This document shows, one piece after another, positions 11,691 to 43,537 of a stretch of 51,359 nucleotides of DNA. The notes beneath the pieces were generated by a model. The model had not been told where the DNA came from, did no database searches, and saw nothing but the letters and a program-made list of their open reading frames with translations. Within the stretch, counting starts at the first letter, position 1. Each line of letters opens with the position of its first letter. The stretch is from a virus (taxonomy: Duplodnaviria > Caudoviricetes): the IMG/VR virus record IMGVR_UViG_3300049596_000773, positions 1-51,359 of that record; one strand, written 5' to 3'. Both the position numbers and the translations under genes were made by a program.

Positions 11691-12853
11691 GCACCACCAT
11701 CGCGGAAGCACCGCCAGCCGAAAACAAGCCAAGCCCGTTTCATGCGGCGCTGGAAAATGCGTTCAAGGGAGACGACGCGCCACCTGTCGAAACCAAACCG
11801 GAAGCAGTCGCCAAGCCTGCCGAGGCTGCTAAGGAAAGCTCTAAGTCGGTTCCTGACACACTGTTCAAGAAGCCGGACGCCGACGCGAAGCCGCCCGAAG
11901 AAGCGCCGCCAGCCAAAGCTGCTGCGGATGAAATCGCCGAGCCGCCAAAGCTGGACGCCAAGGGCAAGGCAGGGTGGGAGGCGTTGAAGAAAACGGCGCG
12001 AGAAGAGGCGACCAAGCGGGCGGAACTTGAGAAGCAAATAGAGGAGTGGAAATCCAAAGGCCGCGATCCTGAGACGCTGGAAAAGCAGCTTGCCGAGCGC
12101 GACAAGAAGCTGTCTGAATACGAGACTAAGGTGGCGCGGGTTGACCTGGAATCGAGCGAGAGTTTCCAGCGCGAAATCGTAGAACCGCGCAACCGCGAGA
12201 TGCAACGCGCCAAAGCATTTGCCGAAGAAATCGACGCAAACCCGGAGGAACTGACTGCGGCACTGTCACTGACCGGAAAGGCGCGGGCCAACGCGCTGCG
12301 CGATCTGGCGCTTGACCTTGACCCGGTGCAAAGCGGTCGGCTTGGCCGCATCATTGAGAAGATGGACGAGTTGCATGAGCGCGCCGAGTCGGAGCGGGCC
12401 AATGCCAAGACGTATTTGGAACAGCGCACGGAACGCGAGCGTCTGGACAAGCTGGCCGAGCATGGCGAGTTCGTAAAAACCAAGTTCTTGCAATTCGAGG
12501 ACACGACCAAGCGGCTCAAGGCGCGGCTGGAAATCCTAAACCAAGTGGACGGTCACGAAGATTGGAACACCAAGTCAAAGGCCGTTGTGGAAAGCGCCCG
12601 CGCTTACATTCAGGAAAATCCCTACGCCGATGTGGAGGCGGTGATTGAGGCGAAGGCCATGCCGGTTTATCGTGAACTGTTTCTGGAAACTCGCGAACGC
12701 GAGGCGGCACTGGAATCAAAGGTTGCTGAAATGGAGAAGGAACTGAAAGCGATTCATGGACGTTCACCGTCTCTGACGCAGCGCGGGGCAGCGGCAGAAG
12801 TTGGCAACAAGAAGCCGTTTAGCTCCATGATTGCGGAGGCGTTCGGGCAATGA
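11687..12853 (+). CDS. Capsid scaffolding protein (probable)
   Basis: P/A/E/K-rich N-terminus and charged coiled coil; lies between portal and capsid. Confidence 0.7.
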   Translation: MSTTIAEAPPAENKPSPFHAALENAFKGDDAPPVETKPEAVAKPAEAAKESSKSVPDTLFKKPDADAKPPEEAPPAKAAADEIAEPPKLDAKGKAGWEALKKTAREEATKRAELEKQIEEWKSKGRDPETLEKQLAERDKKLSEYETKVARVDLESSESFQREIVEPRNREMQRAKAFAEEIDANPEELTAALSLTGKARANALRDLALDLDPVQSGRLGRIIEKMDELHERAESERANAKTYLEQRTERERLDKLAEHGEFVKTKFLQFEDTTKRLKARLEILNQVDGHEDWNTKSKAVVESARAYIQENPYADVEAVIEAKAMPVYRELFLETREREAALESKVAEMEKELKAIHGRSPSLTQRGAAAEVGNKKPFSSMIAEAFGQ

Positions 12854-12862
12854 ATACTAACG

Positions 12863-12939
12863 ACATACCGACCCCAAGCTCAGCGACTGCGGAGGCGAGT
12901 CCGCGAGCCGAAGCAGTTCGCTGGAGCGCATGGTTGGGC
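12863..12939 (-). mobile_element. attC-like site (attC-a)
   Basis: Minus strand reads GCCCAAC-catgc-GCTCCAGCGAAC...GTCGCTGAGC-ttggggtc-GGTATGT: R'', bulged L boxes and a variant R'. Confidence 0.75.
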
Positions 12940-12954
12940 GACGTTGGATTGCGG

Positions 12955-13284
12955 CTAGAATCCGTCATCTGTAAAAGTGTCTGGAGGATCGCTTTTGTCC
13001 GCAAAGTCGTTCCATCGCTGCTTATCATTATTCGCCTGCGCTTCCTTGAACTTCGCATGTTCTTGTTGAAGCTCCAGATGTGTTGCGAGCAGCGCCGAAT
13101 TGCGAAGTTCTGCCGTCTCAAGGCTGATAACGAGCGATTCATTTCTAGCCTTCAATTCGGAAAAAGACCTGTCAAACGCAGCGGCTTGGTCACGTATGCT
13201 GATAACTTTCGGTTTCCATTCTGAAACAGATGCGCCGCTGGTGAATATACCATCAAGAAAATCAATTAGGTCTGCGGATGTCAT
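12955..13284 (-). CDS. Gene-cassette-borne hypothetical coiled-coil protein (109 aa)
   Basis: The only antisense gene inside the head operon; bracketed by two attC-like sites, with its stop codon 15 nt before R''. Confidence 0.7.
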   Translation of the reverse strand: MTSADLIDFLDGIFTSGASVSEWKPKVISIRDQAAAFDRSFSELKARNESLVISLETAELRNSALLATHLELQQEHAKFKEAQANNDKQRWNDFADKSDPPDTFTDDGF

Positions 13285-13322
13285 AATATGAATAAATCGA
13301 ACGAGATGCAGGGTGCTCAGTC

Positions 13323-13390
13323 GCCTAAAAAACAAGCTCAGCGAATGGCGAAGCGAAGCGGAGCCGGTTCGCTGGAGCGTGCTGGTATGT
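13323..13390 (-). mobile_element. attC-like site (attC-b), degenerate R' (TTTAGGC)
   Basis: Minus strand reads ACATACC-agcac-GCTCCAGCGAAC...TTCGCTGAGC-ttgttt-TTTAGGC. Confidence 0.7.
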
Positions 13391-13403
13391 CTGGAGGAAA
13401 GCC

Positions 13404-14318
13404 GTGATTCTCGTCATTGCGTTCTGCCAGAAAGACAAGGCGACAACCGTTCGTCTTGCCAACTGGATTGCAGAATTAGGTGGCACGTCCCGGCATGATC
13501 TGCTGCTAGCATTTCACGAAGACACCACGCCGGACCCGATTCACGAAATCCTCAAACCGCACTTCAACCACGTCGGCGGATTCAAGATTAGCGACTCGGA
13601 GACGACTTACCCGGCCATTGCCAATATCATGTGGCATGAGTGCGTGAAGACCGTTGCTGACCAGTTCAATGTTCCGTGGTTCTGGATGGAACCGGATGCC
13701 GTGCCGCTGGTGCCGGAGTGGTTGGACAAGATCGAGGACGAATACCTTGCGGCCAAGAAGCCGTTCATGCTGGACAAGGTGATTACGCCTACGCGCTCGC
13801 ACAATAGCGGCGTGGGAGTGTATCCAGGCAGGGTGCGAGACTACACCATTCGCCTGTGGGAGCTTTCAAACATCCCGTGGGACGTATTCTTGGCGGAGGA
13901 GTTCACGCCGTTCACGCATCATACCGCGCTGATTCACGACAAGTTCTATCGGGTGTGGGAAGACCCGAACAGCGGTCCTCCGATTTTTCCTGACGCAGCA
14001 TCGCTGTCCATCATTGAACCGGGTGCCGTGCTTTTCCATCGTAACAAGGACGGCAGCCTAATGGATCGTCTGCGCGAATCGCGGGGTGGTGTAATCGCAG
14101 CACAGCCGCACTCATCGGCGGTAGGAGCTTGTTCAAGTCAAGCCCCCGCAACTGTGGACACGGATGCACTGCTGCGGAGAATCGCGGAACTAGAAGAAAA
14201 GCTGAAATTACAAACTGTAACAACTTCGGTTACAGAAGGAAAAAAACAGCGCACGCTGGAACAGATTCAGGCCGCAAAGGACAGGATGGCGAAGGCGCGT
14301 GCCGGGAGGAAGAAGTGA
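13404..14318 (+). CDS. Putative GT-A-fold glycosyltransferase-like protein
   Basis: WFWMEPDAVPL (ExD metal motif after a hydrophobic strand), SGVGVYP, PWD and a late FH motif. Confidence 0.55.
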   Translation: MILVIAFCQKDKATTVRLANWIAELGGTSRHDLLLAFHEDTTPDPIHEILKPHFNHVGGFKISDSETTYPAIANIMWHECVKTVADQFNVPWFWMEPDAVPLVPEWLDKIEDEYLAAKKPFMLDKVITPTRSHNSGVGVYPGRVRDYTIRLWELSNIPWDVFLAEEFTPFTHHTALIHDKFYRVWEDPNSGPPIFPDAASLSIIEPGAVLFHRNKDGSLMDRLRESRGGVIAAQPHSSAVGACSSQAPATVDTDALLRRIAELEEKLKLQTVTTSVTEGKKQRTLEQIQAAKDRMAKARAGRKK

Positions 14319-18530: not shown

Positions 18531-20303
18531 ATGGCGACCATCACCGTAACGACGTTCTGGAACATGGATTCGCGGAAGTGGACGAGCGACCTGCTTGGCA
18601 CCACGGAGCAAGGACCGTTGGCCGGCCTCGTCCAGGGTGACATCGTGAAGTTCGCCGTGCGGTTCGTGCAAGGCGGCGTAGCGGTGGCGCTGACTGCCCC
18701 GGTCTTCACCGCATCTGGCATAAAGGCGTTGAACGACTTCACCGGCGGCTACCTCATCCAGCTTTCCGCGCCTGTCCTGAGCGACACCACGCTCTATACT
18801 TTCACCGTCTCGCCGCTTAACAGCGCGCAACTGAACACGTTTTTGCAGACGTATCGGAATACGTGGTGTGCGCTGGAACTTTACGACAGCGCCAACGGCA
18901 TACTCACGACTCCATTGGAACTGCAAATCACGCCGGGATACAGCCTGAGCGGGACGCCGACGGACAATGTGGATGGCGTAATTGTCGTCGCCGCTGGCAA
19001 GACCGTAACATTCCCGCTCTCGCTCACGTTCCCGAGCGCGGCGGGGACGAATGGCTACAAGCTGACCACCGACGGCGCAACAACGCTGAGTTGGACGGCT
19101 GACAATGCTGGGGCACCCGGAGGCAGTAACACACAGGTTCAATACAACAACAACGGCGCTTTTGGAGGCTATGCCATCAGCGGCACCGGCAGCGTGGCGA
19201 TGACGACAAGCCCGAGTTTCACCACGCCGAGCTTGGGCGCGGCCACGGCGACGAGCATCAATGGTATCACGATCACAGGCTCGGGCACGCTCACGATGGA
19301 GGGCAGCATCAACACCAGCGTCAACGGCGGATATATCAACACTGGTGGCAACGGAAGTGCTTTTGGTGGCAACATTGACACTTCTAGTGATATAGGAAAC
19401 CAAGCTGGCGGCTCCATTAACACCAGCGGCGGCAGCAGCGGAGCAGGCGGCAGCATAAACACCAGCAACGGTGGCGGAAACATTGACACCACGGCAGGCG
19501 GCAGCATCATCACCGGAGCAGGCGCACTGACTGGCCCAGCCGGCGGCGGCACCATCGCGCTGACTAGCGACATCACCGGCGGCACGCTGGCGGGGAGCTT
19601 CACCACGCTGGCGGTCAACGGGAAAAGCCTGACGCTCGGCGCAAACTTAACCACCAGCGGCACCGACCTCCCGACGTTCGCTTTCCCATCGGCGGCAACG
19701 GCGCGCACCTACACCTTCCCGACGACCACTGCGACGCTGGCGCGCACCGATGCGGCGCAGACGCTCACCGCGACGCAAACCATCTCCGAATCAACGGACA
19801 GGAACGGAGCTGCAGCAGGGGCATCACTGACCATTAGCGGGGCGGCATCCGTAGGGCCAGCCTTTAAGATGTCCACCACTGCGGCAGGCACGTTTAGTGT
19901 ATTTGTCCATGCCACAAACGGGCATACATACGTCGGCACAGCATCGGGTTCGCTTATTGTGACGAGCGGAGTCAACAGCAGTGGATCAACCATGTTCTCG
20001 GTCACAAGTGGCGGCGCTTTTTCCATACCTGGCACGCTCGCCGTCACCGGAGCCACCACGCTGACCGGACTGCTTACGGCCAATGGCGGAATCACACTTG
20101 GAGACGCGCAGAACATCGCGGTCAACACCACGACCGGCACGAAGATTGGCACGGCTACCACGCAGAAGATCGGATTCTGGAATGTCACTCCAGTAGTGCA
20201 ACCAGCCGCCGTGGCGGACAGTAGCGGCGTGCTGATGGACCTGACCACGCAATTCAACGCACTACTCGCCAGACTCCGATCCGCCGGAATAATCGCCACC
20301 TAA
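18531..20303 (+). CDS. Tail fibre / receptor-binding protein
   Basis: Gly/Thr/Ser-rich, with repeated GGxI(N/D)T units, an NTQVQYN motif and the C-terminal NALLARLRSAGII typical of phage fibres. Confidence 0.75.
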   Translation: MATITVTTFWNMDSRKWTSDLLGTTEQGPLAGLVQGDIVKFAVRFVQGGVAVALTAPVFTASGIKALNDFTGGYLIQLSAPVLSDTTLYTFTVSPLNSAQLNTFLQTYRNTWCALELYDSANGILTTPLELQITPGYSLSGTPTDNVDGVIVVAAGKTVTFPLSLTFPSAAGTNGYKLTTDGATTLSWTADNAGAPGGSNTQVQYNNNGAFGGYAISGTGSVAMTTSPSFTTPSLGAATATSINGITITGSGTLTMEGSINTSVNGGYINTGGNGSAFGGNIDTSSDIGNQAGGSINTSGGSSGAGGSINTSNGGGNIDTTAGGSIITGAGALTGPAGGGTIALTSDITGGTLAGSFTTLAVNGKSLTLGANLTTSGTDLPTFAFPSAATARTYTFPTTTATLARTDAAQTLTATQTISESTDRNGAAAGASLTISGAASVGPAFKMSTTAAGTFSVFVHATNGHTYVGTASGSLIVTSGVNSSGSTMFSVTSGGAFSIPGTLAVTGATTLTGLLTANGGITLGDAQNIAVNTTTGTKIGTATTQKIGFWNVTPVVQPAAVADSSGVLMDLTTQFNALLARLRSAGIIAT

Positions 20304-20309
20304 AAACCA

Positions 20310-20744
20310 ATGAAAGACCTATTCACAATTCAAACCGAATCCGGCCAGCTATGGCTCGACATCAAAGCGCAGCTTGACGCGAAAGACGCGCAACTCGCCG
20401 ACCAAGCCACTGAAACGAACCTCGCGCGCCAAGCTGCCACCGACGCTCACGCTGCCGCGCTGGCCGCGCTGGCAGACCAGCACGCCGCAGCTCTCGCACA
20501 AGCCGCAACCGACCAAGCCGCCGCTGTGGAGGCCGCGAAGCTCGCAATCCAAACCAACCTTGACGCGCTCGTGACTGCCGCCGAAACCGCACACGCCAGT
20601 GGCGACTTGGATGCCGTCGCAGCGGTCATCGCGCAAGCCCGCTCCTACACCACCGCAGCGCGCCGGGCGAAGATCGAGGCAGACCTCGCCGCCGCACAGG
20701 CCGCTGCCGCCGCACACGCCGCCGCGCTCGCCGCTCTCGCATGA
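20310..20744 (+). CDS. Ala-rich coiled-coil hypothetical protein
   Basis: ATG just after the fibre stop; ATGA overlap with the downstream gene. Confidence 0.65.
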   Translation: MKDLFTIQTESGQLWLDIKAQLDAKDAQLADQATETNLARQAATDAHAAALAALADQHAAALAQAATDQAAAVEAAKLAIQTNLDALVTAAETAHASGDLDAVAAVIAQARSYTTAARRAKIEADLAAAQAAAAAHAAALAALA

Positions 20745-21412
20745 GCGACGAAACCCACATCGGCGACGCAGCGGTGCGCGAAGGAGTAGCCTACGGCGTC
20801 GGACTGCTTCTGTCCGGGATCGTCGCGTGGCTGGCGCTGGCGAGAAAGCGCATCGCGCAATGGTGGAACGCCGGAAAGGTAGAGCGCGCAGAAAGCGCTG
20901 CCGCGATGCGCTCAATCGCGGAATCGCTCAAAACTCTATCCGCCGATTTCCGCGAGAAGTCCGCGAAGGACGATGAGATCATCGCGACGATTCGGGACGG
21001 CTTTCGCGCTCTTCTGGACGGGCATCGCGTGAACGCCAAAATGGCCGAACTGGCTCTCGAAAGCTCGCCAACTCCGATGTGGAGATGCGACGCGGAAGGC
21101 AATGCCGAATGGGTCAATCCGGCATGCGCGACTTATTTTGGTTTGCCAGTGCGCGAAATGCTGGGCAGCGGATACCAGGCGCGAATCCATCCCGACCATC
21201 GAAGGAAAGTCCGCGAGGCTCTTGACCGGACCATTATGTATCACGAGCCGTATAACGTGGAGTATGCAGTGAGGGGGGAACGAAGCTGGAAAAACAGCTT
21301 CGCCAGCGGCAAGCCGATTTTGTCCGAGGACGGCAAGACGCTGCTCGGCATCCTAGGGATTGTGGAGCCGGTGGACGCCACCACGGAGCGACCGGAGGAA
21401 GACGCCGCCTAG
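20741..21412 (+). CDS. Membrane-anchored PAS-domain protein
   Basis: N-terminal TM helix, coiled coil, then the PAS signature WRCDAEG..WVNPA..YFG....MLG.GY...IHPDHR. Confidence 0.75.
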   Translation: MSDETHIGDAAVREGVAYGVGLLLSGIVAWLALARKRIAQWWNAGKVERAESAAAMRSIAESLKTLSADFREKSAKDDEIIATIRDGFRALLDGHRVNAKMAELALESSPTPMWRCDAEGNAEWVNPACATYFGLPVREMLGSGYQARIHPDHRRKVREALDRTIMYHEPYNVEYAVRGERSWKNSFASGKPILSEDGKTLLGILGIVEPVDATTERPEEDAA

Positions 21413-21446: not shown

Positions 21447-21474
21447 TTGACAGGCGCATAAGCGGGGGCAAAGT
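21447..21474 (+). promoter_or_regulatory. Possible sigma70-type promoter driving the cassette array
   Basis: Perfect TTGACA at 21447 with a weak -10 (CAAAGT), upstream of ATG 21485. Confidence 0.4.
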
Positions 21475-21484
21475 GGGGTCACTT

Positions 21485-21865
21485 ATGAGCGGCATTAAAT
21501 CGGGCGACATTGTGAATTGGCGCACAACAAACGGGCGTGGAAATCCATGCTCACGCCGGGCTGAGGTGTATTTCGCGCCACAAAGCGATACGGTCATGCT
21601 TTACGTCTATGGTCTCAAAAAGCTCAAGCGGGTGCCGCTGTCTGAGGTTCGCGCTATACGCACAGCACAGCCTAAAGTGGAAGCCGTCGCGGAAACCGTG
21701 AAGCGAATGGACTGCCCGAGTGTGATGCGCGAGCACCTGTGGAGCATCGAGCGTGAAGGCATGATCGAATGCCTGTGGTGCTTCCAGAGGCGTCGCTCGG
21801 AGGATAGAGAGCGGCATACCGTGCGCGGTCAACGACTGGCGCAAGAGACGCCACCGAATGCCTGA
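21485..21865 (+). CDS. Hypothetical protein ending inside attC1
   Basis: ORF with a CxxC motif; its TGA lies in the attC1 loop. Confidence 0.55.
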   Translation: MSGIKSGDIVNWRTTNGRGNPCSRRAEVYFAPQSDTVMLYVYGLKKLKRVPLSEVRAIRTAQPKVEAVAETVKRMDCPSVMREHLWSIEREGMIECLWCFQRRRSEDRERHTVRGQRLAQETPPNA

Positions 21866-21946
21866 AACCTTTCGCGCCAGTTCGCTGCACCAAGTGGGTC
21901 GGCGTGTCTGGCGCACGTAACCAAACGCGCGAAGAGCCAAACTAAT

Positions 21947-22189
21947 ATGAAGACACTGCAACCAGAAGAAACAATGTATGCCCTCTACTGCCGACTGGAC
22001 AACAGCCGGGAGTGGTGGGCGCAAGAGACGACCAAAAGCAAGGAGGATGCTGAATACTGGCTCAAGCGAAACCGCGAGCGAGAGACCGGGCGGGTGTATG
22101 TGCTCGTGAAGAAAGTGACGACGTTTGAAGTCATCGACGGCGCGGACTCGGAAGCGCCAGATTCGCCGACCGTGGGAGATCAGAGATGA
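21947..22189 (+). CDS. Cassette hypothetical protein (80 aa)
   Basis: Between attC1 and attC2; ATGA junction inside attC2. Confidence 0.65.
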   Translation: MKTLQPEETMYALYCRLDNSREWWAQETTKSKEDAEYWLKRNRERETGRVYVLVKKVTTFEVIDGADSEAPDSPTVGDQR

Positions 22190-22515
22190 TCGCCGTCCAA
22201 GACATTCCAGATTCAGTGAAAGCTCGCCTCGGCGATCATTCTCTGGATCGACTGGGTAGGTATCTGGAGCGGCGCGCTGCTAACTGTGAGACTGGGAGAA
22301 AGGTATGCCGCGACATGGAGCGGCCGTGGAGCCCGCCTGTGCCGCTCACTGACTCCGAAATAATGGAAATATCCTACAACCTCGACAAGGCGGGCGCGGC
22401 GGAGGAACGACGTGAACGGCGAGCCGCGAAGAAAGCTGAGAACCAGCGGCGCTGCGAGGCCGGGAAGATACCTAACGCAAAGATCAGCGGCGAGACGCCG
22501 CGCCAAGACCTATGA
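22186..22515 (+). CDS. Cassette hypothetical protein (109 aa)
   Basis: Starts in attC2 and stops in attC3. Confidence 0.6.
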   Translation: MIAVQDIPDSVKARLGDHSLDRLGRYLERRAANCETGRKVCRDMERPWSPPVPLTDSEIMEISYNLDKAGAAEERRERRAAKKAENQRRCEAGKIPNAKISGETPRQDL

Positions 22516-22745
22516 AAAACACGACAGACTCAAAACGCGGCGACTCGTTCGCTGCATCGCCGGGTTCGGCAAATAACGGTGAATCGAAGTGGGCGTGGAT
22601 GATGAGATGGTGCCGGGAGAAAGGCGTGTCGCCAGCCAACGCAGCCATGTGGGAACTGGCTGAGAAACGGTGGATCGAAGCTAATTCGCCGAACGTCTCA
22701 AGCTCAGCGGCGACGCCGGGCGAAAGGAGCACCGATGTCCGCTGA
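22512..22745 (+). CDS. Cassette hypothetical protein (77 aa)
   Basis: Starts in attC3 and stops in attC4. Confidence 0.6.
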   Translation: MKNTTDSKRGDSFAASPGSANNGESKWAWMMRWCREKGVSPANAAMWELAEKRWIEANSPNVSSSAATPGERSTDVR

Positions 22746-23553
22746 CCTCCCAAGCCCGGAGTCGTCCGCTGGAGCGCGTGGTTATACCCCGTTGGACGTG
22801 AGCGCCGCGTCGAATCGGGAATTGGAGTGGGAGGCAGGTGCGGAGCTTCGTCCCTACTACCATGCCGAAGGCATCACCATCTTTCACGGCGACTGCCGCG
22901 CGATACTGCCGCGCCTCAAAAAGCTCGACCTGCTCTGCACCGACCCTCCCTACGGAATCGGCTTCGCCGCGATGCCAACCAAGTGGCAGCGCCGCGCCGG
23001 AAAGCAGGCCGAAGCGTGGGACGATGACAGCGCCGAGGAATGGCTGATCGGCATGGCTCGCTCAAAAGCCGAGCGGCAAATCATCTGGGGCGGCAACTAC
23101 TACGACCTCCCGCGCGCCCGGTGCCTGCTCTCGTGGTATAAGCCGGACGCGCCGCCGAGCATGGGCAACGTGGAATACGCCTGGACGAACCTGAACCAAA
23201 ACTCCCGGCAAATCTCGCACTCGATAAGCGCCACGAACGCGGAGCGGCTGGGGCACCCAACGCAAAAGCCGCTGCGCGTGATGCTCTGGACGCTCGGCCA
23301 AGTGAGCGAGGTAAAGAGCGTGCTCGACCCGTGGATGGGAAGCGGGACCACGCTGCGCGCCGCGAAAGACTTGGGACTTCGCGCCATCGGAATTGAGCGC
23401 GAGGAAAAATACTGCGCTATGGCTGTCGAACGACTCGCGCAAAGTGTTCTGTCTTTGGGGGCGGGGGTTGGAGAGTGCGACGCGAACGGCAGTGCGGAAA
23501 AGGGGTATAACGAAAAAGCTGAGCCGCACGCTGGGCTAGGAGGGCCATCGTGA
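22735..23553 (+). CDS. DNA methyltransferase (N6A/N4C, beta class)
   Basis: TDPPYG, HPTQKP, LDPWMGSGTT and IGIE motifs in beta-class order. Confidence 0.92.
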   Translation: MSADLPSPESSAGARGYTPLDVSAASNRELEWEAGAELRPYYHAEGITIFHGDCRAILPRLKKLDLLCTDPPYGIGFAAMPTKWQRRAGKQAEAWDDDSAEEWLIGMARSKAERQIIWGGNYYDLPRARCLLSWYKPDAPPSMGNVEYAWTNLNQNSRQISHSISATNAERLGHPTQKPLRVMLWTLGQVSEVKSVLDPWMGSGTTLRAAKDLGLRAIGIEREEKYCAMAVERLAQSVLSLGAGVGECDANGSAEKGYNEKAEPHAGLGGPS

Positions 23554-24482
23554 GCGCGCAAACTATCCCAGCCCAGAGTGTCGGCTCCAGCGCGTGGTTA
23601 GAGCCCATTCGCGGAGACGGCGCGCCGCACGCAGAATCCGAAGGGGTGGGGGGACTTCGTAAATACTCCGCCGCAGGCCTGACCTTGTATCTCGGCGACT
23701 GGCGCGAGCATCGCGACCTGCTCGCGGGCGTGGATGCGGTAGTGACTGATCCGCCGTATGGATTCGGCTACGACCCGGCGCGAAGCCGCAAGGCCGTGAA
23801 CGTGCAAAGGGGACTGGCGCTCGTTGATCGCGATTGGGCGCAGATTGAAGGCGAAGCCGAGGAGTTCGACCCGCGCCCGCTGATTGATCTCGCGCCGGTC
23901 GTGGTGCTCTGGGGAGCGAACCACTACGCGCACCGGCTGCCGAGCAGCAAGCGGTGGTTCGTGTGGGACAAGCGGGATGGGGTGGCGAGCGACAACCAAT
24001 CTGACGCGGAAATGGCGTGGTGCAATGTCGGTGGCTCCGTGCGGCTGCACCGCCAGCTCTGGCGCGGAATCGCGCGGGCGGGCGAGGAGAACATCGCCAC
24101 GGCTGGCGCGAAGCTGCACCCGCACCAAAAACCGGTCGCGCTGATGGCATGGTGCATGGAGCACGCGAAAATCCCGGTCGGCGCGCTGGTAGCTGACCCG
24201 TATTTCGGGAGCGCCTCGACTGCGATTGCGTGCCTTCGTACGCAACGGCGTTTCGTGGGATTCGAGATTGATCAAGCTCACTTTGACACGGCGGTTGCGA
24301 GGATTCACGGCGAGCTTTCGCAACGGGATTTCTTCACGGGCGGCGGGGGTGGATTTTTGCCTTTAACACCGTCGCCCGAACAGCCGCGCTTGGGCTCTAA
24401 CGAAAAGGTCAGCGACTCGCCGCCGCTGGCTTCCAACAACACGAAAACCGCGAACGGCGAGTTCGCTGCACCGCTTGGTTAG
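23550..24482 (+). CDS. Second DNA methyltransferase (N6A/N4C, beta class)
   Basis: TDPPYG, HPHQKP, ADPYFGSAST and VGFEID motifs. Confidence 0.9.
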   Translation: MSAQTIPAQSVGSSAWLEPIRGDGAPHAESEGVGGLRKYSAAGLTLYLGDWREHRDLLAGVDAVVTDPPYGFGYDPARSRKAVNVQRGLALVDRDWAQIEGEAEEFDPRPLIDLAPVVVLWGANHYAHRLPSSKRWFVWDKRDGVASDNQSDAEMAWCNVGGSVRLHRQLWRGIARAGEENIATAGAKLHPHQKPVALMAWCMEHAKIPVGALVADPYFGSASTAIACLRTQRRFVGFEIDQAHFDTAVARIHGELSQRDFFTGGGGGFLPLTPSPEQPRLGSNEKVSDSPPLASNNTKTANGEFAAPLG

Positions 24483-24495
24483 GCGCGATTGACTT

Positions 24496-24813
24496 ATGAT
24501 AACATACGGAACACCAGAATGGGAAAACCGACAGAGATACAGAACGTATCAATGGAACCAACTCAGAAAACGGTTGATTCGCGATGCGTGTAAAACGTGC
24601 CAGCGATGCCGCGAGCGAAGCTACGGATATGCGGCAAAAGCAAATCCATTGCAAGTTCATCACACCTACTACTTGCGCGACAAGAATCATGCGCCGTGGG
24701 ACTACCCTGACTCTTGCTTTTTGGTGCTTTGCAAGAAATGCCACGAACGCGAGCACGCAACCAACTCGGTTCACTATTATGACGCACACCCGCACGCAAG
24801 ACGTATCGCCTAA
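24496..24813 (+). CDS. HNH endonuclease-like cassette protein
   Basis: CQRC...LQVHH...LCKKCHEREH. Confidence 0.8.
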   Translation: MITYGTPEWENRQRYRTYQWNQLRKRLIRDACKTCQRCRERSYGYAAKANPLQVHHTYYLRDKNHAPWDYPDSCFLVLCKKCHEREHATNSVHYYDAHPHARRIA

Positions 24814-24822
24814 CCACAGAAT

Positions 24823-25137
24823 ATGCGAAGAATGAAATCTTTTTGGCAGCGCAAGCGCGTGAAGACATGCGCGAAAATGCAGCGGTGGCGCGATGCCAAG
24901 GAGCGCAAGCGGCTCGCGTCTGATGAACTTGTTCGAGTCGAATGGCGCGGCAGGCTTGAACATTCCATCACCTTCCACAATCGACTGACCGGCGAAATGC
25001 ACACGTTGGACTTGCGACGCGGAAAACGGCGCGACCAATTCGCCGCCGAGGTGGACGGCAAGCCGTGGCGCGTGCTATCAGCAACGCAGCTTGGCAAGCT
25101 GATCCGAGACAAATTCAAACCGCACATAAGAGAATGA
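24823..25137 (+). CDS. Basic hypothetical protein
   Basis: ORF immediately after the array; ATGA overlap with the downstream gene. Confidence 0.55.
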   Translation: MRRMKSFWQRKRVKTCAKMQRWRDAKERKRLASDELVRVEWRGRLEHSITFHNRLTGEMHTLDLRRGKRRDQFAAEVDGKPWRVLSATQLGKLIRDKFKPHIRE

Positions 25138-25292
25138 AAAAAACCCGATACCCCAACAACATCAAACTAGGCGTGACCAAGCCGCAAGCCGCGTGGATAA
25201 AGCGCGAAGCAAAGGCGCGAGCACTCAGCGAAGCGCAGGTCGTCAGAACGGCTGTTGACCACGCTCGCGGATGCGTTACGGTGCATCAGTGA
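25134..25292 (+). CDS. Ribbon-helix-helix (CopG/Arc-like) DNA-binding protein
   Basis: IKLGVT strand followed by helix-helix AAWIKREAK..LSEAQVVRTAV. Confidence 0.6.
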   Translation: MKKTRYPNNIKLGVTKPQAAWIKREAKARALSEAQVVRTAVDHARGCVTVHQ

Positions 25293-25768
25293 ACCGCCTC
25301 GCCCTACTTGCGGCAATCCTCCTTGCATCATGCCAAAGCGCACCCGTAAAAGCCCGCAAGATCATGGCCCCGGTGGCAGCGAAAGCGGCCAAGGCGGGCA
25401 AGATCGTCGCAAAGCAGACCGGCAGCATCGGGCGATTGAAGGCAAGCGTGGCGGAGTCCGTGGAGGTAGCGGAAAAGCTGAACAAGGAACGCCCGGACGG
25501 CGACACAGCGCGGCTAATCCTTTCCCTCCGCATCGCCGCGTCGGAGACGGATGCGCTTCGTGGATCGAATGAAGAACTCAGACTCACAATCAGCGGAATG
25601 GAGGTCGCCATCGCACAAGCCCAGGACAAGATGGCCGTTGAGATCGCCGGGGCTGAGACGTGGAGGACGTGGGCGTGGCGGTGGTGGTGGGCTTTCGCAG
25701 GCACGGTTGCCAGCGTCGCCGCGCTGGTCTATTTTCGCGCTCAAATCCCATTCCTGAAATTCCTATGA
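25289..25768 (+). CDS. Lipoprotein with coiled coil and C-terminal TM (spanin-like)
   Basis: Signal peptide with lipobox LASC; C-terminal hydrophobic helix; lies in the lysis cluster. Confidence 0.55.
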   Translation: MNRLALLAAILLASCQSAPVKARKIMAPVAAKAAKAGKIVAKQTGSIGRLKASVAESVEVAEKLNKERPDGDTARLILSLRIAASETDALRGSNEELRLTISGMEVAIAQAQDKMAVEIAGAETWRTWAWRWWWAFAGTVASVAALVYFRAQIPFLKFL

Positions 25769-25944
25769 AATTCCCAATACTCGCCGCCGCTCTGCTCTTC
25801 ACCGGCTGCTCAAGCCTCACCACGCGCGAAGCCGACCGCACATGGGAAAGCGTCGGCGAGCCGTGGACGCAACGCCCGCCGACCGGGCCCGACACGGAAC
25901 GCACCGTTGACGCGGACGGAAACCCAAATTTCGGACCGCGATGA
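25765..25944 (+). CDS. Small lipoprotein (o-spanin-like)
   Basis: MKFPILAAALLFTGC lipobox and a Pro-rich tail. Confidence 0.55.
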   Translation: MKFPILAAALLFTGCSSLTTREADRTWESVGEPWTQRPPTGPDTERTVDADGNPNFGPR

Positions 25945-26342
25945 AATTCCTAAAGCTGCTATCCGCCGCATTTGTTTCGCGCAAGTTCCTGATGACAATT
26001 TTCGGGCTGTGCGCCTTGTGGCTCGTTTATTGGAAGCAGGTGGACTACCTGTATTCCTTCGTCGGACAAGGGACGGATATTGTCGCCGCATACGTCTCGA
26101 TCACTCGGGATTTCATGCTGGCCTTTACCGCCGCCGTGCTGGCGTATCTAGGCGTCAACGGCGTGGTGGCGTGGAAACACAACACCGAGAGCGTGCTGAC
26201 TCAGGTGGCGGAAAACGTCAAGAGCGAGCACACCGAAAAGCGCGAGGACATTCAGCGTGTAATTCACGAAAGCGCGGAGCAGTTTCGAGACGACCTGAGC
26301 TATCGCCCCATCCAACCCGACACCGAGGAAACATTCCGATGA
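25941..26342 (+). CDS. Holin-like two-TM membrane protein
   Basis: SRKF followed by two hydrophobic helices; overlaps the endolysin start. Confidence 0.6.
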   Translation: MKFLKLLSAAFVSRKFLMTIFGLCALWLVYWKQVDYLYSFVGQGTDIVAAYVSITRDFMLAFTAAVLAYLGVNGVVAWKHNTESVLTQVAENVKSEHTEKREDIQRVIHESAEQFRDDLSYRPIQPDTEETFR

Positions 26343-36296: not shown

Positions 36297-37009
36297 ACCC
36301 GGCAATCTCCCGATGCTGCACATGCGGAGCTGAATGGCTGACCGGAGAGGACGGCTCGCACTCGTGCGCCGTGCATCTCAACCGCAAGCTCGCCAAGTGC
36401 CGGTCGGGGCTTGAAGACGCCAAAGAGATCGTGGAGCACGCCCAAAGCTACGCGCTCACGCGAGAATCATACCCCGACGCCGAATTTTACCGGGAAGCCG
36501 GAGAGCGCATCCGCGAAACCCTCGACGCCATCAAATGACCGCCGCCGACCGCCTCGCCACCATCCGCGCCCGTTGCGTGCTTTTTTCGCGGCAGGATTAC
36601 CGCCCTGACACGTCACTTCCCGCTAGCCTACCCTCGACCACGGTCGCAATGGCGCTGACCTGCATCGCCGCAATCGACACCTGCCAGCCAATCACAAAGG
36701 AAAATCTGCCGCTCGTGCAGTCCATCCTCGACGCCTGGACATGACCCGCTCCCACCCGGTTTTCGTCACGCCCTTGTTCGCCGAGCTGAAAGCGGCGGTC
36801 GCTGGCGTTGCGGATATGCCCCTAGAATCGCCAGAAATGCCCGCTGGCGCGGTTTTGGTTGCGAAACGTGCCGACATGCCAGACCCACCCTCGGCGCTGG
36901 AATTGGCTGAACGGGCAAAAAACCGCTGCCAGAGAGGAAACTTACTCTGGCAGCGGCATAATTTTCCGGGCATCTTTGCGCCCTGCACCCAATGCGGGCA
37001 AGTGCGCGG

Positions 37010-37216
37010 TTAGGCTTTGGTTTCGGTTTCCCCCTCGGCGCGCACCCTCGGTGTCCAGTCGCGCCGTTTGCAAGCGCCGCGCCCGGCGCGCCCGGCTTTC
37101 GAGCGTGCCTTTCGGGCTTTCACGGTCATCGCGTAAGGGCTTTTAGGGTCGCCCGGCTGCTTGCGCGGACGGCCACGGCCTCGGGTCGGTTTTGGTTTTG
37201 GTTCGGTGGTGGTCAT
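37010..37216 (-). CDS. Small basic AT-hook-like protein
   Basis: RGRGRPRK motif. Confidence 0.5.
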   Translation of the reverse strand: MTTTEPKPKPTRGRGRPRKQPGDPKSPYAMTVKARKARSKAGRAGRGACKRRDWTPRVRAEGETETKA

Positions 37217-39380: not shown

Positions 39381-40166
39381 TCAGTTGGCCGCGTCCAGCT
39401 CGGCAATCGCCTTTTTCACTTCGCTGTCACTCCCCCAGCGTGTCGCGCTGGTCAGATAGCCTCCGCCTGCATCGTGCTTCGTGTATCCATATTTCGTGGC
39501 GCTGATCTTCGTCACGGCGCGGGCCGGGAAGCGTTCCACAAGGGCGAAAAGTAGGCGGCGGTAAAAGCTGGGGTGTCCGCAAGCGAAAGCGAGGGCGGCA
39601 GGGTGCATCCGGCTCCCGGCTTCCTTCACGCGAATTTCCATCGCGAAAACTGCCGGGCCGTTCTCCTGGCTTCCGATACTCTTTTTCACCCAAAGCTCCA
39701 CGCGATTTCCGCCCGCTTCGATGCGGTTGACAGCGGCACAAACGGCCACGGCATAATCCATAATCGTCTGCCCGCTAACGCCAGACGAAAAGTTGAGGGC
39801 GACATTCACGCGGCGAACGGTTTTTCCTCGAATCATCACGCGCCTGCTTTCCGTCATGTTCTCGGGGTCGCCGCTGCAGAAGCGCGCAACGTCGCAATCG
39901 TCGCCGCTGACATCGTAGCGCGTCACGCTCCGGCGCGTGGCAGTCTTCGCCCCTGCTGCCACCTTGCGAGCCGCTAAAGCCTTCGCCGCCTTTTCCGCGC
40001 CGTCTTTCCATCCGCTGGAAGCGAGGGCCAGCGCGGCAGCAAGGGACGGTGTGCCGAAAAAGCGCTCGTCGCCGGGTCTGTCGCTGGCGCTTCCGGCTCC
40101 GGTCTGCCGGGGCTGCTGGCAGTAGGAAACTACCTCCGCCATGCTTTTTAGGGTGAGCGTGTGCAT
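39381..40166 (-). CDS. vWA-like partner of the AAA ATPase
   Basis: Directly downstream of the MoxR-type ATPase; DVARFCSGDPENM and HPSFYRR motifs. Confidence 0.55.
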   Translation of the reverse strand: MHTLTLKSMAEVVSYCQQPRQTGAGSASDRPGDERFFGTPSLAAALALASSGWKDGAEKAAKALAARKVAAGAKTATRRSVTRYDVSGDDCDVARFCSGDPENMTESRRVMIRGKTVRRVNVALNFSSGVSGQTIMDYAVAVCAAVNRIEAGGNRVELWVKKSIGSQENGPAVFAMEIRVKEAGSRMHPAALAFACGHPSFYRRLLFALVERFPARAVTKISATKYGYTKHDAGGGYLTSATRWGSDSEVKKAIAELDAAN

Positions 40167-40167
40167 T

Positions 40168-41352
40168 TTAGAGAGCCTCCCGGAAAGCGGTTTCAAGGGC
40201 CCGGGCTTCATCTTCCGGCAATCCGCGCGTGATGAGTCCGGGAATCAGCCAATCAATGCCAAGTCCGGCGCGGCAGAGTTTCGCGCCCATAATAGATGCG
40301 CGAGGGGAAACAGTGTGGCGCATCTGGAGCGCTTCGCATTTCGCCCTGGCCGCGAGAACGCCAGCGTGCCACTTCTCCGCGCTCACCACTCCGCCAGCGT
40401 CAAGTTTGCACTCCTGCTGCTGCGGGCCGGCAACGCCTGCGGCTTGCGCCTCCATTGCTTCATCGTAGGGGAACGCGAGGAAAAAGAAGCGGTCGAGCGT
40501 GGAGGCATCTAATTCCATTGCGGCCGTATAGAGATTCGACGCTCCGGTGCCGGCGGTGTTCGCCCCGGCGATGCACCGGAAGTTCTCGTTGCGGGGGATG
40601 ATTCCGGCGGGTGTGCTCATTGAACCGTTGGCAAGCGGTGTGTTGAAGGTGGTCAAGATCGCGCCGTCCGCGCGGTCCATTTCGTCCGCTAGCCACACTC
40701 CGCCGTCCCGATAAAGGCGCACAAGCGAGGTGTCGTGATAGCAGCCGGCGGCGTCGCGATAGCCAAGGAGTTTCGCTTCCGACATTCCTGGGCCGAAAGA
40801 TTGAAACTCGAAGGGCAAAGCAAGGGCGTCCGCTATGGCATGGGCAATGGTGGACTTTCCACCTCCTGCCGGTCCGCACAAGTAGAGCGGGACACCGGAC
40901 GAAACGACAGCACACGCGATAGGGAAAAGCCAATGCTGCCCTTCTACGGTGCGAGTTTGCCCGGCGCTTACTACGTCAACGACAACCCGACGGGGCGCAA
41001 CTTTCGCCGCTTCATCCGCTGCAATGGCGCGCACTGCGTCTTCATCTAGGGGCAAAGCCTGGGGTGTCACACTCTCCATTGCTGCTCTGATAGCATCCGC
41101 CAGCGCTGCGGCGGCATCGCCTCCAGCGCGCACCGTAGCAACGGGACGCGCGGCGGGAAGCGGCAGCAATTCATTCTGTAACGCTGCGAGCAGTTCCGCG
41201 CGGCTCATGGCGGCCACGGTGCTGCTCGGCTCGCCGCCAGCTTCGCGGATGTCTCGGCGAAGATGGGAGCGAAGTCCGGCAACTAGCGCGCTGTCATTCA
41301 CGGCCAAGCGTTCAAGCTCGGCCACGTCGTATGGTTTGGTTAGGTAGTTCAC
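40168..41352 (-). CDS. MoxR/CbbQ/CobS-like AAA+ ATPase
   Basis: GPAGGGKST, WLADEMD, AGANT, LDASTLDRF and SPR motifs. Confidence 0.88.
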   Translation of the reverse strand: MNYLTKPYDVAELERLAVNDSALVAGLRSHLRRDIREAGGEPSSTVAAMSRAELLAALQNELLPLPAARPVATVRAGGDAAAALADAIRAAMESVTPQALPLDEDAVRAIAADEAAKVAPRRVVVDVVSAGQTRTVEGQHWLFPIACAVVSSGVPLYLCGPAGGGKSTIAHAIADALALPFEFQSFGPGMSEAKLLGYRDAAGCYHDTSLVRLYRDGGVWLADEMDRADGAILTTFNTPLANGSMSTPAGIIPRNENFRCIAGANTAGTGASNLYTAAMELDASTLDRFFFLAFPYDEAMEAQAAGVAGPQQQECKLDAGGVVSAEKWHAGVLAARAKCEALQMRHTVSPRASIMGAKLCRAGLGIDWLIPGLITRGLPEDEARALETAFREAL

Positions 41353-42049: not shown

Positions 42050-42486
42050 CTAGACCGTAACGTAATAAAACGCCACTCATATAAAGCAGAGGCCAGCTCG
42101 GCACGCGCGAGGGCTGCGCCAGGATGGGTGCCGGTGCGGTGGCAGGGCCGGTGCTAGCACGCGCGGAGAGGGTAAGGAATCCATTATTTTACAGGCCAGC
42201 GCGGAGGGGGCGGGGGAGGGGGCTTTTCCGTGCGTGCGCGTATAGGGGCGTCTCTCCTTCCGTCGAGCAAAATCGACTTTTCTAGTAATTCTAACGGGCC
42301 TGTCCCCGACCGGCACCGTAGCTTCCCCCTGAGCTGCGCTGGTCTGTGAGCTGTCCTGGGGCGTGGGCGGTGGCGGTTGCGAGCACCGTCTAGCACAGTT
42401 TCAACAGTGCCTATTCTTCTTCTTCTGTCTGGGTTGAAAACGCTAAATATGTTGACAAATGTTGAAAGCTGCTATTTACTCTGTAA

Positions 42487-42933
42487 ATGTTCGCTAAAGT
42501 CTTTCAACAAATCTTCGATTCCTCGATTGCCGAGAATTACCGCTATCGGCACATTTTCATGGATATGCTGGTCTTGGCGGACCCGGATGGAGGCATTGAC
42601 ATGACGTTGGAGGCGATAGCGCGAAGGACGAATGTGCCGGTGGATGAGTTGCGGGAGGCGATTACGGCCTTGAGCCTGCCGGATGCGTCGTCGAGGACAC
42701 AGGAGTTTGAGGGGCGGCGGTTGGTGCCGATTGACGCGAAACGAAGCTGGGGCTGGCGGGTGGTTAGCTACGGGCATTACCGGGCGATTCGGGACGAGGA
42801 GACGCGGAGGCAGTATCAGCGGGACTACTACGTTGAGCGGAAGGCGAAGAAGTCGCTGAAAAAGCAGGTTCGGACGGCACGAGACGGCAATCCGCAGGCG
42901 ACCATGACACCGAGGGCACCGCATGAACCTTGA
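42487..42933 (+). CDS. Paralogue of the initiator N-terminal DNA-binding domain
   Basis: Aligns by eye with the 32247 ORF: AK(V/L)F..I..SS, ML..AD..G, PD..S..Q.FEGRR, G.RVV.Y..YR.I. Confidence 0.75.
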   Translation: MFAKVFQQIFDSSIAENYRYRHIFMDMLVLADPDGGIDMTLEAIARRTNVPVDELREAITALSLPDASSRTQEFEGRRLVPIDAKRSWGWRVVSYGHYRAIRDEETRRQYQRDYYVERKAKKSLKKQVRTARDGNPQATMTPRAPHEP

Positions 42934-43279
42934 GGAACGGCAATTCCTGCGCCGGAAACGGCTCTTAAACGCGCCGTTAGGCGTTCCGGGTGGTTGGCTG
43001 AGGGAAGTGAGTGCGGCGGGCAAGGAGGTCCATTCTCTTTACTGCCAGTGCTCGGATTGCTGGAGGCCGGTCACAGATGAGGACAGGGCACGGTGGGAGA
43101 AGAAGCGAATCCACTGAAATTATGACTGCTGAACAGGAAAAACTGATTGAGGACTACATCGCGCATTTCTTCCCTTTTGACGGAAAAAAGTGCGAGTGCG
43201 ACAAGGAGGCTGGCGTAAAGTGCAAGTTTGCCCGATTCACACCGGAAATGTGGGAGCCGCTAACCTCTGGCGATCCAAA

Positions 43280-43537
43280 TCACAGCTTTTCATCCAGCAA
43301 CCGCAGCACGCCGAGCCAGTTCTCGCGCGTCTTGAAATAAATCTCCATCGTGGTCGCGCCGCCCTTCTCGTTCATCAGGTAGATGTCGATGCCGTAGAGT
43401 GAAGTGTCGTCCTTGTAGGCGTAGTAGCCCTTGAAGTCGATCTGGTTGAACGTAAACATCACGTATCCGTCCACATAGACCTTGACCCGCCCGTTGAAGA
43501 TTTTGAAGTCGTAGGTGAATTGAGGCTTGGCTGGCAT
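43280..43537 (-). CDS. Hypothetical aromatic beta-rich protein (85 aa)
   Basis: Good codon pattern on the minus strand; divergent from the gene at 43589. Confidence 0.65.
   Translation of the reverse strand: MPAKPQFTYDFKIFNGRVKVYVDGYVMFTFNQIDFKGYYAYKDDTSLYGIDIYLMNEKGGATTMEIYFKTRENWLGVLRLLDEKL

Follow-up and report, generated by a model that had tools for sequence, protein, structure and literature searches.

The window analysed here is the whole of IMG/VR virus record IMGVR_UViG_3300049596_000773 (51359 bp), a phage genome with direct terminal repeats (DTR) that is rated 100% complete. Between positions 21813 and 24814 it holds six gene-bearing units bounded by hairpins resembling attC, the recombination site of integron gene cassettes, and a smaller module with two such hairpins lies at 12854–13403. 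We consider it probable that these form a true integron-type cassette array that lacks its own integrase (CALIN, cluster of attC sites lacking integron integrases) in a complete and apparently non-integrating phage, with an integrase acting in trans. The arrangement suggests that these phages exchange DNA-modification genes by means of a borrowed integrase.

Phage genes in the window include a large terminase (phrog_2, 1.3e-10), an endolysin (phrog_17001, 2.3e-72), a DnaC-like loader and an SU10-type adaptor, and nearly all long open reading frames (ORFs) lie on the plus strand. An earlier sequence-only reading of this DNA had noted that no tyrosine recombinase was visible. Six-frame searches of the complete 51359-bp record agree, with no match to PF00589 (tyrosine recombinases), PF00239 (serine recombinases) or TIGR02249 (integron integrases), the last searched at E up to 1. 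Because neither PF00589 nor TIGR02249 has a match in this complete record, the array is not a complete integron, which would combine intI with an adjacent attI and promoter. It has the composition of a CALIN (at least two close attCs with no intI nearby), with six sites in 2.7 kb and two more in 0.55 kb in a genome without an integrase.

attC sites and their bacterial relatives

The sequence-only reading had proposed six attC-like hairpins and had paired the two ends of each unit with each other. All six repeat pairs are present, at positions that were right to 1–2 nt, and the minus-strand example it quoted is the reverse complement of 22467–22574. Two of the pairs were also found independently by a search for inverted repeats (21897–21914 / 22154–22171 and 23597–23614 / 24384–24401, each 18 nt and 89%). 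The repeat pairs divide the region into six units, and the hairpins, J0–J5, are elements of ~85 nt at the unit junctions (21813–24484) with attC geometry on the plus strand. Read along that strand, each element runs from a TAAC-type box through a 5–7 nt spacer and a 10-nt L arm to the inner stems and loop, and then through a 12-nt L arm with two extra bases and a 5-nt spacer to a GTT-type box.

Two covariance models were used. R1 was built from the six J sites, so its scores on J0–J5 prove nothing, and it brought out two further sites, K1 and K2, that had gone unnoticed in the earlier reading. R2 was built from 25 attCs of four bacterial arrays beside intI genes and was run with filters off. 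It detects all eight window sites, all on the plus strand, with E from 4.5e-14 to 6e-5, so that the call made from the letters is supported by a model whose sequences are exclusively bacterial. The sites are as follows.

21813–21903, plus (bottom) strand: attC J0; degenerate boxes GGCATAC ... GGTCGGC; R1 76 bits; R2 27.2 bits, E 6e-5; fold z +0.41
22165–22261, plus strand: attC J1; degenerate boxes GCCGACC ... GGTAGGT; R2 39.9 bits, E 3.7e-8; fold z −0.7
22470–22570, plus strand: attC J2; boxes ACCTAAC ... GTTCGGC; R2 42.1 bits, E 1e-8; fold z −2.99
22688–22787, plus strand: attC J3; boxes GCCGAAC ... GTTATAC; R2 63.1 bits, E 4.5e-14; extra bases G16 and T23
23505–23603, plus strand: attC J4; boxes GTATAAC ... 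GTTAGAG; R2 32.1 bits, E 3.6e-6; fold z −3.24
24395–24484, plus strand: attC J5; boxes CTCTAAC ... GTTAGGC; R2 41.2 bits, E 1.7e-8; fold z −3.57
12859–12944, plus strand: attC K1; L box 12878–12887 / 12916–12927; right box GTTGGGC at 12933–12939; outer box GACATACC at 12862–12869; R1 36.2 bits, E 5e-9; R2 49.6 bits, E 1.2e-10; fold z −0.6
13319–13395, plus strand: attC K2; left box GCCTAAA at 13323–13329; right box GGTATGT at 13385–13391, then GGAGGA and the GTG with which the next phage gene begins; R1 19.2 bits, E 9e-4; R2 28.6 bits, E 2.8e-5
24808–24814, plus strand: terminal core box GCCTAA/C, with no hairpin after it; right end of the array

With R2, no other site in the 51 kb falls below E 0.05. 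The next best match, at 36983–37020 (E 0.056 and 0.84 with the two models), shows a GTTAGGC box without an L stem and was taken as chance; a terminator-like hairpin lies just 5' of it, at ~36924–36957. Rfam returned no family for the window at gathering score, and at E up to 10 it gave only four chance-level matches in 21700–24900. The segment 3' of the last core site forms no hairpin (24803–24900, z −1.1 on the plus and −0.1 on the minus strand), and by its position the terminal core box would stand where an attI-type junction would be held on the top (minus) strand.

J2–J5 fold better than shuffled sequences (z −2.5 to −3.6). An RNAalifold consensus of the six J sites has 17 pairs, with compensatory changes in 11 of them; the L boxes of J4 and J3, for instance, differ by compensatory changes. 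In an alignment of 57 phage sites from the window and related phages (50 distinct), which had been fitted to the model, 89.9% of cells pair and 14 of the 17 pairs show double changes. Shuffles of this alignment pair at 72.5% and a slid partner at 23–42%, and the covariation score was reached by none of 500 shuffles. The L stems pair in 98.6–100% of cells. Predicted 'helix' columns in the spacers pair in only 41.7%, which fits an unpaired central spacer.

An attC is made of two pairs of imperfect inverted repeats (R''-L'' ... L'-R') and is recombined as a folded bottom strand, with GTTRRRY on the arm that faces the AAC triplet. On this strand one arm carries 5'-RYYYAAC-3', and the extra-helical bases of the other arm, separated by a 6-bp stem, are at position 16 (usually G) and at position 23 or 24, where a T is conserved (Nivina 2016, PMC5027507). 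Counting from the plus-strand 3' end gives, for the window sites, a box of 7 nt, a spacer of 5 nt, 3 bp, an extra base, 6 bp and T23; the box, spacer and 3 bp thus place the first extra base at position 16. J1 and J3 have G there, and J0, J2, J4 and J5 have C. An nhmmer profile parsed 358 sites, bacterial for the most part. Of the five window sites parsed, two have G and three have C at position 16; the counts are 19 G and 10 C in 29 other phage sites, and 204 G and 85 C in 295 bacterial sites. Position 23 is T in 5/5, 29/29 and 294 of these, respectively. The boxes conform as well: J2–J5 and K1 carry ..AAC and GTT.., GTT is found in 337 of the 358 sites, and the purine/pyrimidine pattern is strictly kept by some sites only, such as GTTAGGC of J5. 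For attCs in general, spacers of 5–6 nt and lengths of 57–141 bp have been described (Nivina 2016, PMC5027507). The window sites have spacers of 5 nt in the 3' arm and 5–7 nt in the 5' arm (9 nt in K1), and lengths from ~69 nt (K2) to 101 nt (J2). Since the extra bases at 16 and 23 follow the published rule, the plus strand is the predicted recombinogenic bottom strand and the minus strand the conventional top strand.

Where do such sites occur outside phages? An exact 26-base pattern, taken from the L arms, matched at least 120 bacterial genome stretches. Among the matches listed, most titles name Verrucomicrobiota, Chthoniobacterales, Verrucomicrobiales, Spartobacteria or the PVC (Planctomycetes–Verrucomicrobia–Chlamydiae) group, a minority name other phyla, and numerous stretches hold dense arrays, with as many as 13 matches within 8 kb. 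TIGR02249 exceeds its 265-bit cut-off at six places in three of the four genomes behind five array loci, compared with none of 14 control genomes. In all four intI–array pairs (G004:C229, G001:C8 twice and G001:C7) the array lies on the side of intI expected of an integron, and the strand that matches the phage plus strand is the expected bottom strand. This geometry and the extra-base rule (PMC5027507) both uphold the earlier call that the minus strand is the top strand. Together, the pattern matches and the geometry place the phage sites, as judged from sequence, in the attC family of Verrucomicrobiota chromosomal integrons, and this membership suggests the host, which is probably a freshwater member of Verrucomicrobiota. 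The 3.2-kb array region is contained in 24 lake or freshwater metagenome runs (59–100% of sampled words). One genome of the set (G001, a Verrucomicrobiota-type metagenome-assembled genome, MAG) holds, on contigs C7 and C8, four integron integrases over the cut-off and a fragmented fifth, each near attC arrays.

Cassette units, gene strand and coding within hairpins

The units and the genes that they carry are listed here, with the gene that follows the array. Names beginning with L denote phage loci, and the relatives of the window were fetched by means of the 590-aa protein encoded at 18531–20303.

21692–21819, plus strand: unit Y; cassette body fused into the 3' part of ORF 21473–21865; left attC absent; ends in core box GGCATAC
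21947–22189, plus strand: unit 1 gene, 80 aa; unit ends 21897–21914 / 22154–22171; no Pfam, PHROG or NCBIfam match
22186–22515, plus strand: unit 2 gene, 109 aa; no family match; no homolog in any fetched locus
22512–22745, plus strand: unit 3 gene, 77 aa; no family; 84% identity over 50 aa in L001, 5' of a J3-type hairpin
22735–23553, plus strand: unit 4 gene, DNA methyltransferase; PF01555 2.9e-17; phrog_67 1.7e-36
23550–24482, plus strand: unit 5 gene, second DNA methyltransferase; PF01555 6.1e-16; phrog_67 5.3e-29
24496–24813, plus strand: unit 6 gene, HNH endonuclease; phrog_119 3.4e-10; Pfam HNH 16.6 bits, below the 21.4 cut-off
12955–13284, minus (top) strand: K cassette ORF, 109 aa, coiled-coil-like; canonical cassette orientation
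24823–25137, plus strand: right-flank gene, 104 aa, basic; conserved, with 97% identity in L001 next to the array end; no family

The cargo had been described from the letters as two DNA methyltransferases, an HNH nuclease and small ORFs, all six genes on the plus strand, and both statements hold: the PF01555 and HNH PHROG matches identify the enzymes and all lie on the plus strand. The unit 5 gene runs through all of J5 to a stop in its GTTAG box, and the unit 6 gene stops at the TAA contained in the terminal core box. Among 5.8 billion proteins, homologs of the K cassette protein form only two clusters. The flank genes at 24823–25137 and 25271–25768 were considered as places for a hidden recombinase and set aside, as neither has a Pfam, PHROG or NCBIfam match.

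The cassette signature is that the two ends of a unit match each other better than the two boxes of a hairpin do. Over positions 4–12 (9 nt), the ends of five window units are complementary at 8, 8, 8, 7 and 7 positions (7.6 of 9), compared with a mean of 6.4 for 189 bacterial units and 4.9 for random unit pairs. For the two boxes of one hairpin the mean is 3.8 in the window and 4.9 in bacteria. The joint chance of the window values is ~4e-8. Whole-unit homologs of unit Y (94–98%) in L013, L079 and L001 are flanked by attCs and have complementary ends, GCTAGGCCGCT / AGCGGCCTA(A/G)C. At the K site the ends are nested: one outer box is complementary to the other (GACATACC / GGTATGTC), and the same holds for the inner boxes, which are the ends of the K cassette unit (GTTGGGCGAC / GTCGCCTAAA, 8/10 matching). 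Complementary unit ends are the pattern predicted for circular cassettes inserted by crossover at one point of the core site, and the nested K pattern is that expected after entry of a cassette into a resident attC.

A canonical cassette has a promoterless ORF on the top strand and its attC at the 3' end of the gene. In the six J units the genes are on the bottom strand with the attC 5' of them, and the K cassette alone among the window cassettes has a top-strand ORF. When the longest ORF of each unit was taken, 146 of 189 bacterial units had it on the top strand and 41 on the bottom (2 ties), compared with 12 of 17 phage units on the bottom strand (4/5 in the window, 8/12 in the others; Fisher p 7e-5). 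Under a stricter criterion, by which the ORF must span 60% or more of its unit and reach 1.5 times its rival, bottom:top counts were 6:0 in phages and 6:86 in bacteria (p 9e-7). Bottom-strand cargo with family support comprises four genes: the two N6_N4 methyltransferases and the HNH gene of the window, and a Mom-like DNA-modification protein in L099 (phrog_1384 5e-32, PF25680 6e-33).

The hairpins are also coding sequence. Successive genes overlap in ATGA at 22186 (within J1) and 22512 and in GTGA at 23550. The J3 loop holds AAGGAG (22724–22729) 5 nt before the ATG at 22735, and the J4 loop holds AGGAGG (23538–23543) 6 nt before the GTG at 23550. On the bottom strand, a ribosome-binding motif with a start codon is found in the hairpin at 17 of 34 phage sites, compared with 31 of 295 bacterial sites (p 1.6e-7); on the top strand, none of the 34 phage sites has one. 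Because the motif and start codon sit in the hairpin on the bottom strand, each phage cassette is predicted to bring its own translation start inside its attC. The tail of the previous gene is encoded by the 5' arm of a hairpin, and the N-terminal leader of the unit 4 methyltransferase, MSADLPSPESSAGARG, by the 3' arm of J3. A leader of this form, MSAD(L/F)P(S/N)P..SAGARG, encoded by the 3' arm of a J3-type attC, is common to the methyltransferase (window 22735–22785), the Mom-like protein (L099:1386–2306, minus strand) and a zinc-ribbon-like ORF (L001 13533–13760). The start and stop arrangement is not fail-safe, since J3 provides a stop codon in only one of the two frames that need one. As read from the DNA, these would be natural attCs written into coding sequence, with ORFs that read through their arms and start in their loops.

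Turnover among related phages and possible sources of an integrase

The 26-base L-arm pattern matched 27 viral contigs, and R1 gave 74 sites (E up to 1e-3) in 26 fetched loci. J3 is 98% identical to L013 11241–11340, and J3-type hairpins are common to many related phages. L013 also has, at 12702–12942, an attC-like site that both models missed at default settings; its L arms, GCTCACCGAC / GTTCGGTGCAGC, pair with compensatory changes ~220 nt apart, and a gene starts inside its loop.

Our next question was whether related phages differ at the core sites, a check that the sequence-only reading had itself proposed. The clearest case is L001, whose flanks are 90–99.8% identical to the window. It lacks 21819–24807, so that the equivalent of window position 21818 is joined directly to 24808, the gap falling exactly between two core boxes. 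The L001 junction reads GGCCTAGC followed by CACAGAATATGCG, where the window reads CGCCTAAC followed by CACAGAATATGCG; all six cassettes thus lie between unit Y and the conserved flank, at a core box. Unit Y itself is whole in five arrays with four different right-hand neighbours: J0 in the window and L011, the same hairpin behind a different box in L079, another hairpin in L013, and the flank in L001. Unit 1 precedes J1 in the window; its copy in L079 (98.5% identical) precedes a different hairpin. A further unit, X', has a hairpin to its right in L013 and non-hairpin flank in L097. For units Y, 1 and X' alike, the homology stops right after ..A(A/G/C)C of the box. The right end of the arrays in the window, L001, L013 and L097 is a lone box without a hairpin, as expected if each cassette has its hairpin on the left, that is, with the plus strand as bottom strand. 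The indel boundaries at these junctions thus respect the A/C core point. Of the two outcomes that the earlier reading had named as refuting it, a lack of covariance-model support and indel boundaries that ignore the core sites, neither occurred.

The K locus varies too. L002, L003 and L004 lack the whole module at 12854–13403, and the two genes that flank it overlap there in ATGA. Both hairpins recur in L009, around different cargo. L007 was considered as a K site with a single attC; it has different cargo again and a truncated second hairpin, and this interpretation was dropped. Over all comparisons, a core site lies no more than 6 nt from 13 of 21 breakpoints (5% expected), a figure inflated by hairpin-to-hairpin matches, and we therefore rely on the individual junctions. 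Taken as a whole, the array differences between near-identical phages point to ongoing exchange.

Four metagenome runs were searched for joints; these are assembled contigs, which cannot show excision. Their contigs hold a window-type array (depth ~3–6) beside an L013-type array (depth ~13–24). Four joints (21815>22684, 22783>24336, 24356>25134 and 25283>25310) were rejected as excision products: they match an L013-like phage and reflect co-occurring variants. Loose contig ends in the same runs fall at unit or core boundaries in three cases (21692, 21823 and 22783) and elsewhere in three (21557, 23110 and 24090).

A tyrosine recombinase is encoded in two of five long viral records with arrays. 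One of these, G006 (58712 bp), is a phage by its large terminase (TerL phrog_979, 539 bits). Its IntI-like gene (G006:C1:40413–41480, equivalent to L240:413–1480, minus strand) matches TIGR02249 end to end with 254 bits (cut-off 265), compared with 104–135 bits for Xer models, and is 37% identical to bacterial IntI over the region that distinguishes IntI. It lies ~1 kb from three attCs of the phage-array family (~42432–43438) in canonical integron geometry, and on these features the locus looks like a near-complete phage-borne integron. A close relationship between G006 and the window phage was considered and rejected, as tblastx gave only noise. Given the several integrases of the probable hosts and the G006 gene, host integrons or co-infecting phages could act in trans on the window array.

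Some other features of the genome may be recorded. Just 5' of the cassette region lies a PAS-domain ORF (20741–21412; PF08447 4.7e-9, PF08448 1.4e-8) that is kept in L001, L011 and L013. An ORF of 2172 aa without a Pfam match occupies the left end of the genome (50–6568), and a tRNA-Glu (CTC) gene (14080–14152) stands amid the structural genes. A minus-strand pair at 39381–41352, encoding a DUF7192 protein (1.4e-29) and an AAA_5 ATPase (1e-13), stands out from the rest of the genome, which is on the plus strand. Around the start of the endolysin gene the repeat TGAAATTCC(T/C)A occurs three times (25755–25776, two copies in tandem, and 25942–25952), with a partly complementary copy at 26098–26116.

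Proposed mechanism, alternatives and known systems

In the mechanism that we propose, a cassette would consist of one attC hairpin and the gene to its right on the plus strand, the reverse of the bacterial layout. When the plus strand becomes single-stranded the hairpins would fold, and an integron integrase from host chromosomal integrons or from a co-infecting phage that carries intI would bind them and cut between A and C of the ..TAA/C box. Whole cassettes could thereby be excised, inserted or exchanged, and the host or other-phage integrase would shuffle the array in trans. The activity of a bacterial integrase on phage sites is plausible given that IntI1 recombined five of six phage attCs tested (Qi et al. 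2023, PMC9892861). The array may serve as an exchangeable set of anti-restriction genes, with read-through from phage promoters providing their expression; this role is suggested by the cargo, which is mostly DNA-modification genes, and both the cargo role and the expression are deduced from sequence.

A more specific version, which we put forward tentatively, is that a freshwater phage lineage keeps a pool of 'reverse' cassettes in which the attC doubles as translation start, with a shared leader such as MSADLPSPESSAGARG, and an integrase of host integrons or other phages is borrowed for the exchange of anti-restriction genes (methyltransferases and Mom-like enzymes). Inserted cassettes would then be expressed at once from phage transcripts, and the layout may place the bottom strands on the strand most often single-stranded, favouring fast turnover. 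Folding is easier when the bottom strand is the lagging-strand template, and this raises recombination and favours excision (Loot et al. 2017, mBio, PMC5371416). Cumulative GC skew shows G over C along nearly the entire plus strand, and by the definition of that study (PMC5371416) the window bottom strands would coincide with the lagging-strand template. This skew is a lead only, as it may reflect one-strand transcription.

Several observations weigh against a trans-acting integrase, or limit it. R2 is partly circular in that its alignment was made with R1, though its sequences are all bacterial. J0, J1, K1 and K2 have folding energies no better than shuffles, which also makes folding energy a poor sole test of an attC. 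J0 (..TAC/GGT), J1 (..ACC/GGT) and K2 (..AAA/GGT) are degenerate and may be dead sites, since the AAC/GTT triplets are missing. The phage units in the strand counts are kin of one another, so those counts are not independent. The attC family is the sole basis of the host assignment. The window cassette proteins have no homologs in the sampled bacterial arrays, and in a tblastn search of ten window proteins against all fetched loci homologs appeared in viral loci only, so that these comparisons give no sign of cassettes passing from host to phage. No recombination event was seen, and the joints in assembled contigs are explained by a co-occurring L013-like phage. Hairpins and genes are also imperfectly linked: the left hairpins of unit Y are unrelated in L013/L079 and L001, and the window has none there; J3-type hairpins (92–98% identical) precede at least four genes, among them a methyltransferase, the zinc-ribbon-like ORF and the Mom-like gene; and some exchanges fall on that side of the hairpin for which a bottom-strand crossover does not account. 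Such unlinking would call for homologous exchange in the hairpins, for recombination of the other strand, or for addition of the J3-type hairpin when a cassette is formed.

This last group of observations is what a different explanation would predict, namely that the hairpins are conserved linkers whose modules are swapped by homologous recombination, or RNA structures for polycistronic translation, or both, the attC form being inherited. Crossovers within hairpins would leave near-identical J3-type hairpins (92–98%) between different units and differing left hairpins at unit Y; ribosome-binding sites lie in the loops together with start and stop codons; no recombinase was found in the phage; and there are breakpoints away from hairpins at 21557, 21662, 21692, 22600 and 23110. 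We nevertheless regard this as unlikely. Homologous exchange neither creates nor maintains complementary unit ends, and it leaves the nested ends of the K site and the constant lone core box at the right end unexplained. The extra bases 16 and 23 and the unpaired spacer, kept in 50 distinct phage copies, go beyond what an RNA or a linker needs.

That the array is a passive piece of a host integron, gained once by illegitimate recombination and now decaying, seems to us quite improbable, even though the attC family is that of bacterial integrons, J0, J1 and K2 are degenerate, and chromosomal integron fragments are documented in phages (PMC9892861). The genes lie on the strand opposite to that of bacterial cassettes, have phage-type functions and lack homologs in sampled bacterial arrays; there are two separate loci in the genome; and arrays differ cassette by cassette among phages with 90–99% identical flanks. 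We give still less credence to an unrecognised phage enzyme, such as the cassette HNH or a family-less ORF, as the recombinase of these hairpins. Most window ORFs are without a family, including the conserved 104-aa gene at the array end, which leaves room for one; no positive evidence favours it, the sites retain the features that integron integrases read, and the arrays of relatives such as L013 have neither the HNH nor the 104-aa gene. An integron integrase supplied in trans thus remains our preferred explanation.

Integrons are commonly regarded as a bacterial tool. Recent work describes their cassettes as banks of anti-phage defence (bioRxiv 10.1101/2024.07.02.601686). Here integron recombination sites stand on the phage side, with putative counter-defence genes and a layout fitted to phage transcription. 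If the integrase does act in trans, host integron activity would be a direct driver of phage evolution, phages would be cassette vehicles, and the arrays would be a systematic exception to the rule that cassette genes lie on the top strand; if the 'reverse' cassette reading holds as well, integron machinery would be used by the predator rather than the prey. The data also tie an uncultured phage group to probable hosts in Verrucomicrobiota, bacteria that hold large, multiple chromosomal integrons.

Phage CALINs as such are already known. Qi et al. 2023 (PMC9892861) described 17 in temperate and virulent phages, with five methyltransferase cassettes, N6_N4_Mtase among them, that were read as anti-restriction genes. 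In the searched literature, as far as its text was accessible and including PMC9892861 minus its supplementary tables, we found no description of bottom-strand cassette genes in phages, and likewise none, PMC9892861 included, of translation starts in phage attC loops. The same literature, to the extent of the accessible text, yielded none of phage sites shared with Verrucomicrobiota integron attCs or of Verrucomicrobia phage integrons, and none of near-identical phages whose arrays differ cassette by cassette. What appears new is the reversed form embedded in coding sequence, together with the evidence for turnover.

How does the window array compare with other systems? The boundary or linker sequences of lambdoid phages are short, conserved and placed at gene junctions where mosaic joints fall, like the phage hairpins. 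To our knowledge, those linkers form no structured hairpins with integron core boxes, and complementary ends are not a feature of the modules between them. The phage CALINs of Qi et al. (PMC9892861) resemble the window in being attC arrays without intI and with methyltransferase cargo; unlike it, they come from isolated phages of other hosts, and the two best examples have the typical bacterial orientation. Nivina et al. 2020 (Sci Adv, PMC7439510) devised structure-based synthetic attCs that fit into nearly any sequence, protein-coding DNA included. Their sites are engineered, whereas in the phage natural ORFs cross attC arms and start in loops. In 25 of 30 chromosomal integrons (Loot et al. 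2017, PMC5371416) the arrangement of bottom strand and replication is opposite to that apparent in the window. Close counterparts are the sedentary chromosomal integrons found in Verrucomicrobiota MAGs, in which the L boxes (GCTCAGCGAC / GTTCGCTGGAGC) and spacers are near-identical to those of the phage, the extra bases 16 and 23 are the same, and the ends of a unit are complementary. They differ in that intI adjoins the array, ORFs are mostly on the top strand (146/189), a ribosome-binding site with a start codon is rarely found in the loop (31/295), and the core boxes are more uniform than those of the phage, with CTAA in 276 of the 358 parsed sites, most of which are bacterial.

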